This document shows positions 7,271 to 50,763 of a stretch of 64,000 nt of DNA, in pieces (position 1 is the stretch's first letter; every line of letters begins with the position of its first letter). Location of the stretch: NCBI RefSeq assembly GCF_988242995.1, contig NZ_OZ547043.1; one strand, given 5' to 3'. The notes under the pieces are model-generated. The model was not told the DNA's origin. It did no database searches and was given only the letters and a program-made list of their open reading frames with translations. The translations under genes were made by a program, and so were the position numbers.

Positions 7271-7357
7271 TGGTACCCGGAGCGGGACTTGAACCCGCAC
7301 AGCGCGAACGCCGAGGGATTTTAAATCCCTTGTGTCTACCGATTCCACCATCCGGGC
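7271..7357 (-). tRNA. leuZ: tRNA-Leu (UAA anticodon type)
   Basis: Reverse complement matches the 87-nt tRNA-Leu, with the extended variable arm and 3' end GGGTACCA. Confidence 0.9.
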
Positions 7358-7369
7358 TCGGGAAGAAAG

Positions 7370-7443
7370 TGGAGGCGCGTTCCGGAGTCGAACCGGACTA
7401 GACGGATTTGCAATCCGCTACATAACCGCTTTGTTAACGCGCC
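7370..7443 (-). tRNA. cysT: tRNA-Cys (GCA)
   Basis: Reverse complement matches GGCGCGTTAACAAAGCGGTTATGTAGCGGATTGCAAATCCGTC...CTCCA. Confidence 0.9.
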
Positions 7444-7497
7444 AAATTCTTCAGGCCTTTCAGCCAGACATCCGCTTGAGGCCGATGTCTTTTAAAC

Positions 7498-7573
<76 letters not shown>

Positions 7574-39370: not shown

Positions 39371-39457
39371 AAATCCCGACCCTGAGGGGGTCGGGATGAA
39401 ACTTGCTTAAGCAAGAAGCACTTAAAAAATTCGTTACACCAGGAAATCTGATGTGTT
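39371..39457 (-). ncRNA. dsrA: DsrA small regulatory RNA (Hfq-dependent; rpoS activator / hns repressor)
   Basis: Reverse complement reads AACACATCAGATTTCCTGGTGTAACGAATTTTTTAAGTGCTTCTTGCTTAAGCAAGTTTCATCCCGACCCCCTCAGGGTCGGGATTT, matching DsrA including its terminator hairpin. Confidence 0.9.
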
Positions 39458-44670: not shown

Positions 44671-45129
44671 ATGAATCCCCTGCGTGTCGATCTGCGCGCT
44701 GGCACCTTCGCCGCAGATCCACTCTTCCAGACGCTCGCTAAGCGCTTCATCCGTCAGCTTCTCGCGCCCACGTAATGCACACTCCCAGACAATCAATACG
44801 CGCCAGCCGAGTTCCTGCAAACGACTGATATCGCGGCGATCGCGTTCAACATTTTTACCTATCTTCTCCAGCCAGAACTCGGTTCGAGTCGCAGGCACTT
44901 TAAACAGATAGCAGTGATGATGATGCCAGAAGCAGCCGTGGGTAAATATCACGCAGCGATATTCATCAACGACAAAATCCGGGCGTCCGGGCAGACTGGC
45001 GTCCTGAACGCGAAATGCCAGGCCCTGCCCGGTTAACAGACTGGCGAGGCGCTTCTCTATCGCCGTATCACGCGTGGCAATCGCGCGCATATTTTTGCTG
45101 CGAGTGGCCTTATCGTGAACGTCGGCCAT
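44659..45129 (-). CDS. vsr: very-short-patch repair endonuclease
   Basis: ORF track 44659..45291; start moved to [22 protein letters not shown]; overlaps the dcm 3' end. Confidence 0.9.
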
Positions 45130-46528
45130 GTTGTGCCTCTTGCTGACGCAACGCCACCGCCTGTTTGATTTTTGGCTCAAGCAGTTTTGCCACCGCGGCA
45201 AAGACCGGCACGACCACCGAGTTACCGAACTGGCGATAGGCCTGAGTGTCCGAAACCGGAATGCGGAATTTCGCTTCTCCCGGCGCTTCAAAACCCATTA
45301 AGCGCGCGCATTCCCGAGGCGTTAACCGACGTGGACGATGTTGCTGATTCAGCGGATCGTCAAAGTCTTTCTCACCCGTGGCCATATCCCAGCCGCGATC
45401 GATTAAAATTTCCGCGCCATCTTTGTAATAACGCGCAGACAGCGTACGCGTGACGCTTCGCGGATTGTTAGGATAGACCATTCCATAACCGAAGCCGTTA
45501 CCGCGCGCCTGATGTTTTTTCGCATAACGATAGAGGTACTTCCACAGCACCGGCGTCAGGATATATTTCGCCTCGACCATCGGGTCCAGCAGCTGCGCCA
45601 GCGTCACTCGCTGTGCAGGGAAACATTCGCTGATATCACGCAGAGTAAAATCGGCTTTCAGATTAAGATCGCGACGAAAACCCACCAGCACGATGCGTTC
45701 ACGGTGCTGCGGCAGAAAATGTTTACCATCGATGATTTTCGGATCGTCCGGCCCGTTATCTTCTGCATCAGCCACGTCATAGCCCAGTTCGTCCAGCGTC
45801 TGCATGATGATGCGGAACGTTTTACCCTGGTCGTGGCTTTTCAGGTTTTTGACGTTTTCGAGCACAAACATCGCCGGACGACGCGCGTCGATAATGCGCA
45901 CCACATCAAAGAACAGCGTGCCCTGAGTATCGCAGGCAAAACCGTGCGCCCGCCCGAGCGAGTTCTTTTTCGATACGCCAGCCAGCGAAAATGGCTGACA
46001 AGGGAAACCGGCCAGTAAAACATCGTGTTCAGGAATGTGTTTACGAATATGTTCCGCCGCCGCCTCATCACTCACGCCTTCTTTATGGCTGAGGGTGATG
46101 TCGCGGATATCTTCATTAAAATGATGCGTCGCCGGGTCGCAATAATGATTGGCTTTATAAGTGCGTACCGCATGTTTGTTCCATTCGCTGGTAAACACGC
46201 ATTGTCCGCCAATCGATTCAAAACCGCGACGGATGCCGCCAATTCCGGCAAATAGATCGATAAAGCGAAACGCATAATGCGGATGATGTGCCGGTGGTTT
46301 GGGTAACAACGTTTGCAGATGGGCGAACTCTTTCTCACTTAAACGGTGCCATGCCGAGTCATTCGCCAGCGCACGTTTTAAAATTGCCGCGCTCCAGTGA
46401 TTCTCACCCACACCATTAAGCTGCGCCACCAGCGTTTTAACATCATAAATTTGCAGCAGTTTCTCCAGCATTGCCTGTGCGGCATTCCCGGTGCTGTATG
46501 AATCGGTTACTGATATATTTTCCTGCAT
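45110..46528 (-). CDS. dcm: DNA cytosine-5 methyltransferase (CCWGG)
   Basis: 472-aa ORF with C5-MTase motifs (FAGIGG, PCQPFS, ENV); recognised Dcm. Confidence 0.95.
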
Positions 46529-46594: not shown

Positions 46595-47290
46595 TTATCC
46601 CGCGGGTGAAAACGCATCTATCACCTTGTGATCGACACCTTCATTCTCCCCCGCCAGTTCGGCACTGAGCTTCGCCATAAACTCGACTAAAAAATGCGCG
46701 TTGTGCTGCGCCAGCTGCTTGCCTCTTGCGGTTTGCATGGTTTGCGGTAGCTTCAGCAACTTAGTCTGGAAATGATCCAGCGCGTAGCGTTTATCATCAA
46801 GCGGGCGATGCTGTGCGAACGGATCTTCACCATCAAACAGCGCCACGCCCAATGCCCCTGAAACGGCAAACACGCGCGCCAGGCCAATCGCCCCCAGGGC
46901 TTCCAGCCGATCCGCATCCTGGACGATTTTAGCTTCCGTTGTTAAGGGGGCGATTTGCGCGCTGAAACTGTGAGCGGCAATGGCATGACAAACGGCCTCG
47001 ATTTTCTCCGCCGGAAATTGCTCGAACTCTTCACGGAGCAGGCGACGCGTCTCTTCTGCCGCCAGGATTGAAGAACGCTGCCTTTGCGGATGATTTTTCG
47101 CCAGGCTCACAATATCGTGAAAATAACAGGCGGTTAAAATCACCAGCATATCGACATCGTCATCTGCCGCCAGCTTCTGTGCCGTAGCCCAGACGCGGCG
47201 AAAATGACACACGTCATGGGCCGCGTCCTGGTGCTGATGATGGTTTTTCAACCAATTTTCGAACTGTGCCTGCCAGTGTTGTAAGTCCAT
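46595..47290 (-). CDS. yedJ: HD-domain phosphohydrolase YedJ
   Basis: 231-aa ORF with HD motif. Confidence 0.85.
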
Positions 47291-47329
47291 ACGCGCTCCG
47301 TTGCCAAAGAGCCGCCACCTTAGCAGTTT

Positions 47330-47713
47330 TTATTCATAGCGTCTGCTACGTGCGGGACGAGGTCGGGTGTACCAGGCAATGCTGCCTAACAATGCCCCGA
47401 CCAGAGCCATAAATAAAAATCCGACCAGTGCCCCTAACCACTTTCCCGCGGTAGAGCCTAAATCGCTTTCAAATCCCGACACGGGGGCATCGGGGATCCG
47501 GCTCATCACCCAGATGTAACGCGCCATTGCCCAGACGAAATAGCCACACCATGTATAGAAAGCCCACAAAGCCAGTTTGCCGCCAGGGCTGCGAGAGAGT
47601 CTCTCTTCCATCTTTGTCGAACCGTATTCCATTTTGAGATAACCCGGAAAATTCAGACTTAGTACTATTATGTGATAAAAGTCACATTTTTCCACATTGG
47701 ATGAGCCAGTCAA
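47330..47713 (-). CDS. yedR: inner-membrane protein YedR (start codon uncertain)
   Basis: 127-aa ORF containing the recognised YedR sequence ...MEERLSRSPGGKLALWAFYTWCGYFVWAMARY... Confidence 0.7.
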   Translation of the reverse strand: MTGSSNVEKCDFYHIIVLSLNFPGYLKMEYGSTKMEERLSRSPGGKLALWAFYTWCGYFVWAMARYIWVMSRIPDAPVSGFESDLGSTAGKWLGALVGFLFMALVGALLGSIAWYTRPRPARSRRYE

Positions 47714-47861
47714 GACTCACTCATTTTTTGAACAAATAGATAATTTTTGCGCAACGGCAGTGAATACAGGAAAAATCGTTTTGAGCGATTTTATTTATCT
47801 TTGATATCGGCTTTATTAATTCATTTAATCAATATATTAGCACTGATTACAATTATACCTT

Positions 47862-47949
47862 TTTATTATTCTGTGTCATGATGCTTACGTTATTAGCCTT
47901 TTATCGTCTTGTTTATATTTTTTGGGCCGGCATGATGCCGGCTTTTTTT
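47862..47949 (+). ncRNA. rseX: candidate RseX-like small RNA (5' end approximate)
   Basis: Intrinsic terminator gccggcat/gatgccggc plus T7 run at 47926-47949 with no ORF upstream; I recall RseX mapping between yedR and the yedS porin in K-12 (position and strand from memory, not verified). Confidence 0.35.
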
Positions 47950-48260
47950 ATACCTTCATTAATGTGCGCGTGATCACACCAAGTGTTTAGCGCAACAATC
48001 ATTGATACTCCCTATCTTTCCGCTTAACTCATAACATATTGATATACATTTATAATTTTCATGAATATTTATATTTGGAATTCATAATTCTGAATTATAT
48101 TAAATAGATTAGAAACATTTTGAAATCTTTTAAATACATTTGTTACATGTAATCCTTAAAATAAAATGAACTTCATAGAATAGTATCCAAATGTGCTTTT
48201 TTTTGGATAACGGCACTTATTGATATATTCATGAAGATTATAATCACAAGGGAATACATA

Positions 48261-49319
48261 ATGAAAAGAAAAGTTCTGGCAATGCTGGTCCCGGCGTTAT
48301 TAGTTGCTGGCGCAGCAAATGCGGCTGAAATTTATAATAAAAATGGCAATAAACTGGATTTGTACGGCAAGATGGTTGGTGAGCGCATTCTGACCGACCG
48401 TGAAAATGGTGAAAAAGGCGATAATTCTCAAGATACCTCTTATGCCCGTGTAGGCGTGAAAGGTGAAACTCAGATCAACCCTGAATTGACTGGTTACGGT
48501 CAGTTTGAACTAGACCTGGAAGCATCAAACAGACACAACCCTGACCAAACTCGTTTGGCTTATGCTGGTTTGAGTTACAAAGATTTTGGTTCATTCGACT
48601 ATGGTCGTAATGTCGGTGTCGCGTATGATGCAGAAGCATTTACTGATATGTTTGTTGAGTGGGGCGGTGATTCATGGGCTGGTACTGACCTGTTCATGAC
48701 CAACCGTACCAACGGTGTTGCAACCTATCGTAACACAGATTTCTTTGGCATGGTTGAAGGTCTAAATTTTGCTCTGCAATATCAGGGTAAAAATGAAGGT
48801 ACAGGCAACTACAAAGCAAATGGCGATGGCCATGGTTTATCTGTAACTTACACTATTGACGGTTTCTCATTTGCTGGTGCTTACGCAAACTCTGATCGTA
48901 CTGATTTCCAGTCTAGTGATAGTAAAGGTGAAAAAGCAGAAGTTTGGGCACTGTCAACAAAATATGATGCCAACAACGTCTATGCTGCTGTGATGTACGG
49001 TGAATCTCACAACATGAATTCCGACGACGGTGATGTTGTGAACAAAACACAAAACTTCGAAGCTGTTCTGCAATATCAGTTCGACTTCGGTCTGCGTCCA
49101 TCCATCGGTTACTCCTATTCTAAAGCACTGGACGTAGCAGGTTACAAAGATTCTGATCGTCTGAACTACATTGAAATCGGTACCTGGTATTACTTCAATA
49201 AGAACATGAACGTATATACCGCTTATCAGATCAACCTGCTTGATAAGAGTGATTATGTTCTCGCTCATGGACTGAACACCGACGACCAACTCGCATTTGG
49301 TATCGTCTACCAGTTCTAA
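48261..49319 (+). CDS. yedS: general outer-membrane porin, OmpC/OmpF/PhoE family (yedS-type), apparently intact
   Basis: ORF track 48231..49319; start moved to MKRKVLAMLVPALLVAGAANA signal peptide; ends with the porin C-terminal ...VYQF; single uninterrupted 352-aa frame. Confidence 0.85.
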   Translation: MKRKVLAMLVPALLVAGAANAAEIYNKNGNKLDLYGKMVGERILTDRENGEKGDNSQDTSYARVGVKGETQINPELTGYGQFELDLEASNRHNPDQTRLAYAGLSYKDFGSFDYGRNVGVAYDAEAFTDMFVEWGGDSWAGTDLFMTNRTNGVATYRNTDFFGMVEGLNFALQYQGKNEGTGNYKANGDGHGLSVTYTIDGFSFAGAYANSDRTDFQSSDSKGEKAEVWALSTKYDANNVYAAVMYGESHNMNSDDGDVVNKTQNFEAVLQYQFDFGLRPSIGYSYSKALDVAGYKDSDRLNYIEIGTWYYFNKNMNVYTAYQINLLDKSDYVLAHGLNTDDQLAFGIVYQF

Positions 49320-49911: not shown

Positions 49912-50763
49912 ATGACTGTTCAAACAAGTAAAAATCCGCAGGTCGATATTGCTGAAGATAATGCATTCTTCCCTTCAGAATATTCGCTTAGCCAATATAC
50001 CAGTCCCGTCTCTGATCTTGATGGCGTGGACTATCCAAAACCGTATCGCGGTAAGCATAAAATTCTGGTGATCGCCGCGGACGAACGTTATTTGCCAACC
50101 GATAACGGAAAACTGTTCTCGACCGGTAACCATCCGATTGAAACGTTGCTGCCGTTGTATCATCTCCATGCTGCAGGTTTCGAATTCGAAGTGGCGACCA
50201 TTTCCGGTCTGATGACCAAGTTTGAATACTGGGCTATGCCGCACAAAGATGAAAAAGTAATGCCATTCTTTGAGCAGCATAAATCGTTGTTCCGCAATCC
50301 GAAGAAACTCGCGGATGTTGTCGCCAGCCTCAACGCTGACAGCGAATATGCAGCAATCTTTGTTCCTGGTGGTCATGGCGCACTTATTGGTTTACCAGAA
50401 AGCCAGGACGTAGCTGCTGCTTTGCAGTGGGCAATCAAAAATGACCGTTTTGTTATCTCCCTTTGCCACGGCCCGGCGGCTTTTCTGGCGCTTCGCCACG
50501 GCGATAACCCACTGAATGGTTATTCCATTTGCGCATTCCCAGACGCCGCAGACAAACAAACGCCAGAGATAGGCTATATGCCGGGTCATCTCACCTGGTA
50601 CTTCGGCGAAGAGCTGAAGAAAATGGGCATGAACATTATTAATGACGACATCACCGGGCGAGTACATAAGGACCGTAAAGTTCTCACCGGCGACAGTCCT
50701 TTCGCAGCGAATGCGTTGGGTAAACTGGCGGCGCAGGAAATGCTGGCAGCTTATGCGGGTTAA
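49912..50763 (+). CDS. hchA: Hsp31 glyoxalase / protein deglycase
   Basis: 283-aa DJ-1/PfpI-family ORF recognised as HchA. Confidence 0.95.
   Translation: MTVQTSKNPQVDIAEDNAFFPSEYSLSQYTSPVSDLDGVDYPKPYRGKHKILVIAADERYLPTDNGKLFSTGNHPIETLLPLYHLHAAGFEFEVATISGLMTKFEYWAMPHKDEKVMPFFEQHKSLFRNPKKLADVVASLNADSEYAAIFVPGGHGALIGLPESQDVAAALQWAIKNDRFVISLCHGPAAFLALRHGDNPLNGYSICAFPDAADKQTPEIGYMPGHLTWYFGEELKKMGMNIINDDITGRVHKDRKVLTGDSPFAANALGKLAAQEMLAAYAG

Follow-up and report, generated by a model that had tools for sequence, protein, structure and literature searches.

The DNA between positions 47860 and 47949 on the plus strand of the window, i.e., the 64,000-nucleotide stretch analysed as a whole, is almost certainly rseX, the gene for the known small regulatory RNA RseX, and not merely an RseX-like element; on the sequence, this identity is essentially settled. 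An Rfam scan of the whole window returned a full-length match to family RF01401 (rseX, Hfq-binding RNA) at 47860-47949 (+), which spans model positions 1-94 of 94 and scores 96.8 bits (E-value 4.9e-12) compared with a gathering score of 50, and the rseX ncRNA annotated in E. coli K-12 MG1655 (b4603, 2033649-2033739, +) falls on exactly these positions when aligned, differing by a single substitution and by one indel in the T-tail. The substitution, A for C at 47887, falls into the variable hairpin loop, and the tail counts seven T residues (T7, the state found in seven of the eight sequences compared) versus eight in K-12, such that the gene is 90 nt long here and 91 nt long in K-12. Over the complete drpB-yedS intergenic region, the window and MG1655 are 98% identical. 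A preliminary description, made from the letters alone, had placed a candidate RseX-like RNA at 47862-47949 and had named an Rfam scan and a comparison with the K-12 sequence as suitable checks, both of which recovered rseX; its 3' end is exact, and its 5' end lies 2 nt inside the start at 47860 given by the annotation and by Rfam.

The copy in the window is a near-identical allele in the canonical locus of a gene that was already known. RseX has been annotated and experimentally studied in E. coli since 2006, and the window copy accordingly has little discovery value. The coordinates of the gene, its parts and its neighbours are compiled in Table 1.

Table 1. Features of the rseX locus in window coordinates; identities are pairwise values among Escherichia from an eight-sequence alignment.
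Feature	Position	Strand	Identity	Basis or remark
dcm	45110-46528	-		K-12 gene order
yedJ	46595-47290	-		K-12 gene order
drpB (formerly yedR)	47330-47632	-		K-12 gene order
Upstream flank	47800-47859		0.72	
Probable rseX -10, TACAAT (5/6)	47848-47853	+		Annotated 5' end of the RNA (47860) follows 7 nt later
rseX	47860-47949	+		RF01401 match, base-for-base alignment to MG1655 b4603, synteny
5' tail of the RNA	47860-47872		0.85	
5' hairpin, Rfam consensus (weakly supported)	47873-47897	+		Rfam structure line and MFE fold
CUGUGUCAUGAU segment	47873-47882		1.00	
Hairpin loop	47883-47888		0.46	Lowest identity within the RNA
Invariant core CGUUAUUAGCCUUUUAUCGUC (nt 30-50)	47889-47909	+	1.00 in six Escherichia sequences, 0.99 with Citrobacter	Conservation and best target duplexes
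U-rich linker UGUUUAUAUUUUUU	47910-47923	+	0.86	Unpaired in MFE and centroid folds, just 5' of the terminator
Rho-independent terminator	47924-47949 (stem-loop 47924-47944, T7 47943-47949)	+	0.97	Terminator scan; core GCCGGCA-UGA-UGCCGGC at 47926-47942
Downstream flank	47950-47990		0.77	
yedS porin	48261-49319	+		Intact 352-codon ORF, Pfam Porin_1
hchA	49912-50763	+		K-12 gene order

Gene order around rseX

The genes on both sides of the RNA keep the order known from K-12, with dcm, yedJ and drpB on the minus strand, followed by rseX and then by yedS and hchA on the plus strand. In MG1655, rseX lies between drpB (b1963, minus) and the yedS pseudogene (b4496, plus), which is where the preliminary description had mapped it (yedR being the former name of drpB); the strand it had given is likewise that of the MG1655 annotation, where rseX shares the strand of yedS and is divergent from drpB. 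It had further stated that no protein-coding gene precedes the terminator on the plus strand, and in fact only mechanical ORFs of 31-44 aa occur there, with no conserved one ending at this place.

The distance from rseX to yedS amounts to 311 nt, on the same strand and with no gene in between. The porin gene is intact in the window (352 aa, Porin_1 E-value 5.5e-110) and a pseudogene in K-12 MG1655; in strain NT1F10 it is split by IS2, and the intergenic region of that strain is 100% identical to that of the window. Approximately 95 nt 5' of the yedS start codon, and 3' of the rseX terminator, the promoter-like sequence TTGTTA-16-TAAAAT (9/12) at 48140-48167 (+) represents a candidate promoter for yedS itself. 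On the opposite side, the real start of drpB is the ATG at 47632 (100 aa), the mechanical ORF 47330-47713 being too long. The drpB promoter has been located experimentally between the old GTG-1 codon and ATG-22, corresponding to approximately 47632-47695 in the window, and the gene was expressed from a plasmid with no more than 75 bp of DNA 5' of GTG-1 (PMC7648144). Two weaker promoter-like sites are found on the minus strand within 47667-47713, namely TTGACT-16-AAAAAT with an upstream TG, and TGGAAA-16-CATAAT; since the experimentally defined promoter stretch holds such sites, the ORF 47330-47713 overestimates drpB. Elsewhere in the window, full-length Rfam matches were obtained for STnc490 at 17944-18067 (-) with 146.4 bits and for DsrA at 39371-39457 (-) with 102.5 bits, and five tRNA genes are present at 7274-7573 (-), 57548-57634 (-), and 58626-58698 (+).

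Terminator, fold and probable promoter of the RNA

The plus strand reads GGGCCGGCAUGAUGCCGGC from 47924 onward, followed by the T7 run. The intrinsic terminator reported in the preliminary description is thus found where it had been placed, with its core stem-loop at 47926-47942, its T-run at 47943-47949, and its end exactly at 47949. A consensus scan describes the stem 47924-47944 as nine pairs, six of them G-C, closed by a loop of 3 nt, and detects no other terminator-like site within 47300-48400 on either strand. As shuffled sequences are expected to yield 0.8 ± 0.7 such sites, the count by itself does not exceed chance; the terminator is regarded as real because of the strength of its helix (-14.6 kcal/mol) and its conservation. 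The hairpin appears in the MFE as well as in the centroid fold of the 90 nt (centroid -14.6 kcal/mol), and across species its helix shows one compensatory exchange of G-C to A-U (Citrobacter) together with one change of G-U to A-U; the stability of the whole 90-nt fold does not significantly surpass that of shuffled sequences (z -1.56). A bidirectional function of the terminator was considered and rejected, as the hairpin, read on the minus strand, is followed by A-rich sequence and not by a T-run, and no terminator was called on that strand.

With the terminator in place, it was considered whether the RNA might be the attenuated leader of a longer transcript into yedS instead of an independent gene. 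The common strand, the short gene-free distance and the intact porin frame of the window would fit such an arrangement, as would the joint rise of RseX and its surrounding areas in RNA-seq upon deletion of hns (PMC8313858), but the strong terminator with its 7-U tail and the separate promoter-like site between this terminator and yedS do not. Furthermore, rseX is conserved despite the loss of yedS as a pseudogene in K-12 or its interruption by IS2 in NT1F10, no alternative anti-terminator structure emerged from the folds or from RNAalifold, and the RNA works in trans when supplied from a plasmid (PMC8313858, PMC11979758). All this makes the leader very improbable and leaves an independent rseX gene as the preferred reading.

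The 5' part of RseX is less clearly defined. In the Rfam consensus hairpin, the outer pairs join nt 14-15 with nt 37-38, and the inner stem joins 47878-47882 with 47889-47893 around the loop 47883-47888. Its stems are invariant in the alignment, and covariation is therefore uninformative for or against it; RNAalifold prefers a different 5' helix, and the Rfam hairpin is to be seen as weakly supported. The single-stranded U-rich linker preceding the terminator is likely part of an Hfq-binding module, by analogy: a U-rich stretch together with a T7 tail behind the terminator fits the usual Hfq-binding module of Hfq-dependent sRNAs.

An ATG-initiated ORF of 31 aa, MMLTLLAFYRLVYIFWAGMMPAFFIPSLMCA, overlaps the RNA at 47878-47973, and its hydrophobic product raises the question of whether the transcript encodes a small protein instead of, or besides, acting as a riboregulator. 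The ORF extends beyond the terminator, which leaves the terminated RNA without a stop codon, and no Shine-Dalgarno sequence precedes the ATG at 47878. In the orthologues, indels of 1 nt shift the frame, stops occur after 18 codons or are absent, and the C-terminal halves are unrelated, while Citrobacter carries ATT in place of ATG. Because the frame is not conserved between species, the coding function was rejected and can be granted hardly any credence beside that of a regulatory RNA.

The drpB-yedS intergenic region has a G+C content of 29% versus 49% for the window. AT-rich promoter-like sequence 5' of the terminator had been part of the preliminary description, and this point stands in part: the -10 hexamer on the plus strand is well placed, but the best -35 candidates, located at 47824-47831 (e.g., TTAATC with a 17-nt spacer), match the consensus at three of six positions, and the consensus scan called no plus-strand promoter on the 5' side of rseX. 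At 29% G+C, such AT-rich hexamers are common in the region anyway. Every Escherichia orthologue whose sequence extends far enough 5' retains T1, A2 and T6 of the -10 (the E. coli E69 sequence is truncated on this side and lies outside the comparison), and Citrobacter has TACGAA. For K-12, a sigma-70 promoter of rseX supported by 5' RACE is reported in PMC8313858 with reference to Douchin 2006.

The best promoter-like site of the locus points in the other direction. A minus-strand sequence, ATGACA-16-TATAAT at 47879-47852, is unique in the 64 kb, as no other site on either strand agrees with the sigma-70 consensus at 11 or more of the 12 positions. Located antisense within the first 20 nt of rseX, it points toward drpB; its -10 overlaps that of rseX, and its -35 is complementary to nt 15-20 of RseX, the invariant UGUCAU. 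The site is conserved across the Escherichia species and is not found in Citrobacter. An active antisense promoter, back-to-back with that of rseX and competing with it for RNA polymerase, would mean that the output of rseX is set by a leftward transcript from upstream together with H-NS, and that part of the conservation of the RNA is really that of a promoter. We consider this combination unlikely. If the site were active, the leftward transcript would be a long leader of drpB or an unannotated RNA; since the promoter of drpB lies near the gene and 75 bp are sufficient for its expression, the site at 47852-47879 is not needed for drpB. The conservation of nt 15-20 could be due in part to the promoter-like site.

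Conservation, distribution and predicted target pairing

Of 5426 complete E. coli genomes, 4876 carry the 90-nt sequence of rseX, nearly all of them in a single copy, with 325 copies at an identity of at least 99% and 3778 at 95-99%; two matches are located on plasmids. About 10% of the complete genomes lack the gene, which shows that it is dispensable. In one rseX-less E. coli genome (NZ_AP027850.1, 4046-4815, corresponding to the window from about 47645 onward), IS1A directly adjoins drpB and hchA is truncated; a deletion bounded by IS1 has removed rseX and yedS together with the 5' part of hchA. Along these lines, a study of 27 genomes described rseX as variable through secondary loss in several lineages (PMC3318445). 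The curated K-12 record names rseX, but in all 12 PGAP-annotated RefSeq records among the matches listed, no feature of any kind is annotated at the position of the match. A scan that flags rseX hence recovers a real gene omitted by standard annotation (12 of 12 among the matches listed).

Beyond E. coli, one genome per species was searched with a degenerate 33-nt pattern derived from the conserved Rfam positions and requiring an exact match at 23 specified bases, a setting that would miss homologues of lower similarity, such as any in Salmonella or E. fergusonii. Six representatives matched, i.e., E. coli E69, E. albertii, E. whittamii, Escherichia sp. MOD1-EC7003, Escherichia sp. E1V33, and Citrobacter amalonaticus, and all six score above the RF01401 gathering score with 70.9-95.2 bits. 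In C. amalonaticus, rseX is again flanked by yedJ and drpB and, at its opposite end, by an OmpC-like porin.

The degree of conservation differs sharply between the parts of the RNA (Table 1). Neighbouring intergenic DNA is 63-77% identical across the compared species, and an invariant core flanked by such diverged sequence points to purifying selection on the segment that would pair with ompA and ompC. This segment was delineated by a windowed duplex search, in which the opening energies of both RNAs were added and the sRNA body, dinucleotide-shuffled 300 times, served as reference over the region from -30 to +15; the ompA and ompC leaders were the K-12 sequences and not those of the window strain, neither gene being located in the window. 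Nucleotides 37-50 of RseX (47896-47909) pair with ompA from -21 to -7, across the GAGG Shine-Dalgarno sequence (hybrid -16.6 and total -12.8 kcal/mol), and nucleotides 30-43 (47889-47902) pair with ompC from -14 to -1, i.e., from the Shine-Dalgarno sequence to the AUG, through 14 contiguous base pairs (hybrid -16.4 and total -10.5 kcal/mol). The best accessibility-corrected duplexes for both mRNAs thus fall inside the invariant core, nt 30-50, which coincides with the computed pairing segment and is predicted to be the target-pairing (seed) region, the hairpin loop being free to vary. The statistical support is modest, the same energy having been reached by 8 of 300 shuffles for ompA and by 8 of 300 for ompC (approximately 0.03 per target). 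An unrestricted RNAduplex comparison of RseX nt 1-64 with the ompA, ompC and yedS leaders was uninformative, giving loop-rich hybrids no better than those of shuffles (z -0.4, -0.5 and +1.1, respectively). Regulation of the neighbouring yedS mRNA by RseX was examined as well and found no support, with a best total of -6.1 kcal/mol equalled by 280 of 300 shuffles. The 5' end of the RNA, reported to contact fimB and ihfB, also varies between species.

Proposed mode of action and relation to known regulators

RseX, an RNA of 91 nt, initially came to light as a multicopy suppressor of RseP essentiality, and it lowers OmpA and OmpC in an Hfq-dependent manner by acting at their mRNAs (Douchin et al. 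2006, as described in PMC8313858 and PMC7648144). The function given in the preliminary description, that of an Hfq-dependent sRNA with ompA and ompC as targets, agrees with these two sources and with the pairing computed here. Later work added fimB and ihfB, which are repressed through pairing with RseX (PMC8313858), and fepA, which is repressed by the 3' part of the RNA (RseX+52) in a process that needs terminator-loop nucleotides, Hfq and RNase E, and for which no direct pairing was detected (PMC11979758). Overexpression of RseX alters biofilm formation, swarming and curli (PMC4606813).

The following sequence of events can be proposed. Transcription from the weak, AT-rich sigma-70 promoter would yield a primary transcript of approximately 90 nt ending at the intrinsic terminator, which would serve as a trans-acting sRNA, dependent on Hfq if the K-12 literature applies. 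Its single-stranded core, nt 30-50, is predicted to pair with ompA and ompC around the Shine-Dalgarno sequence and the start codon, and this pairing would block translation and lower the mRNA levels. Further targets, as in K-12, may comprise fimB and ihfB by pairing as well as fepA via the terminator loop, apparently without direct pairing. Silencing by H-NS, with StpA as a back-up, would keep rseX off under ordinary laboratory conditions, as it does in K-12. That Hfq dependence, target repression and H-NS silencing hold in the window strain is inferred by analogy with K-12.

It is this silencing that brings up the only rival of any weight, namely that rseX in the window strain is a functionally silent relic, embedded in H-NS-bound AT-rich DNA, with no meaningful transcription and no physiological role. 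In wild-type K-12, RseX was undetectable by northern blotting in any growth phase, and only deletion of hns brought up a band of approximately 91 nt and a form of approximately 75 nt, StpA acting as the back-up silencer (PMC8313858); moreover, rseX lies in extended silenced protein-occupancy domains in seven of eight conditions (PMC11230228). The low intergenic G+C content is consistent with the H-NS/StpA silencing reported in K-12, and one might add to this list the weak consensus match of the rseX promoter, the absence from about 10% of complete genomes, in one case by an IS1-bounded deletion, and the losses in several lineages (PMC3318445). A relic is difficult to reconcile, however, with a core of 21 nt that is invariant in five Escherichia species and 99% identical with Citrobacter included, set in DNA of 63-77% identity, and with a terminator whose pairing was kept through a compensatory change. 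In addition, a strain lacking rseX swarms slightly less (PMC4606813). On balance, a silent relic appears quite unlikely, and a maintained regulatory RNA is the preferred reading.

When compared with known systems, the closest relative is K-12 RseX, which is the same gene: 88 of 90 aligned positions are identical, in addition to the indel in the tail, and the neighbours, the strand and the terminator including its loop are shared. The pairing core and the 5' end of the window allele are identical to those of K-12, and so is the terminator loop, which reads UUU in Citrobacter versus UGA. The differences are confined to the base at 47887 and the length of the T-tail within the RNA, and to the state of the downstream yedS gene at the locus. 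With the porin-directed sRNAs MicA (ompA), MicC (ompC), RybB, MicF and OmrA/B, RseX would share a conserved single-stranded seed on the Shine-Dalgarno/AUG region and the Hfq module of a U-rich stretch and a Rho-independent terminator, a common principle taken from the literature and supported by the computed pairing of RseX. These RNAs have no sequence relationship to RseX, and the other Rfam matches in the window belong to distinct families. In contrast to them, RseX has its transcription silenced by H-NS/StpA instead of being under the control of sigma-E or OmpR (PMC8313858), and its range as found with the exact-match pattern is narrow, comprising Escherichia and one Citrobacter species. 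Another parallel is provided by the 3' ends of SdsR and ArrS, which, like RseX+52, repress fepA via the terminator loop (PMC11979758).
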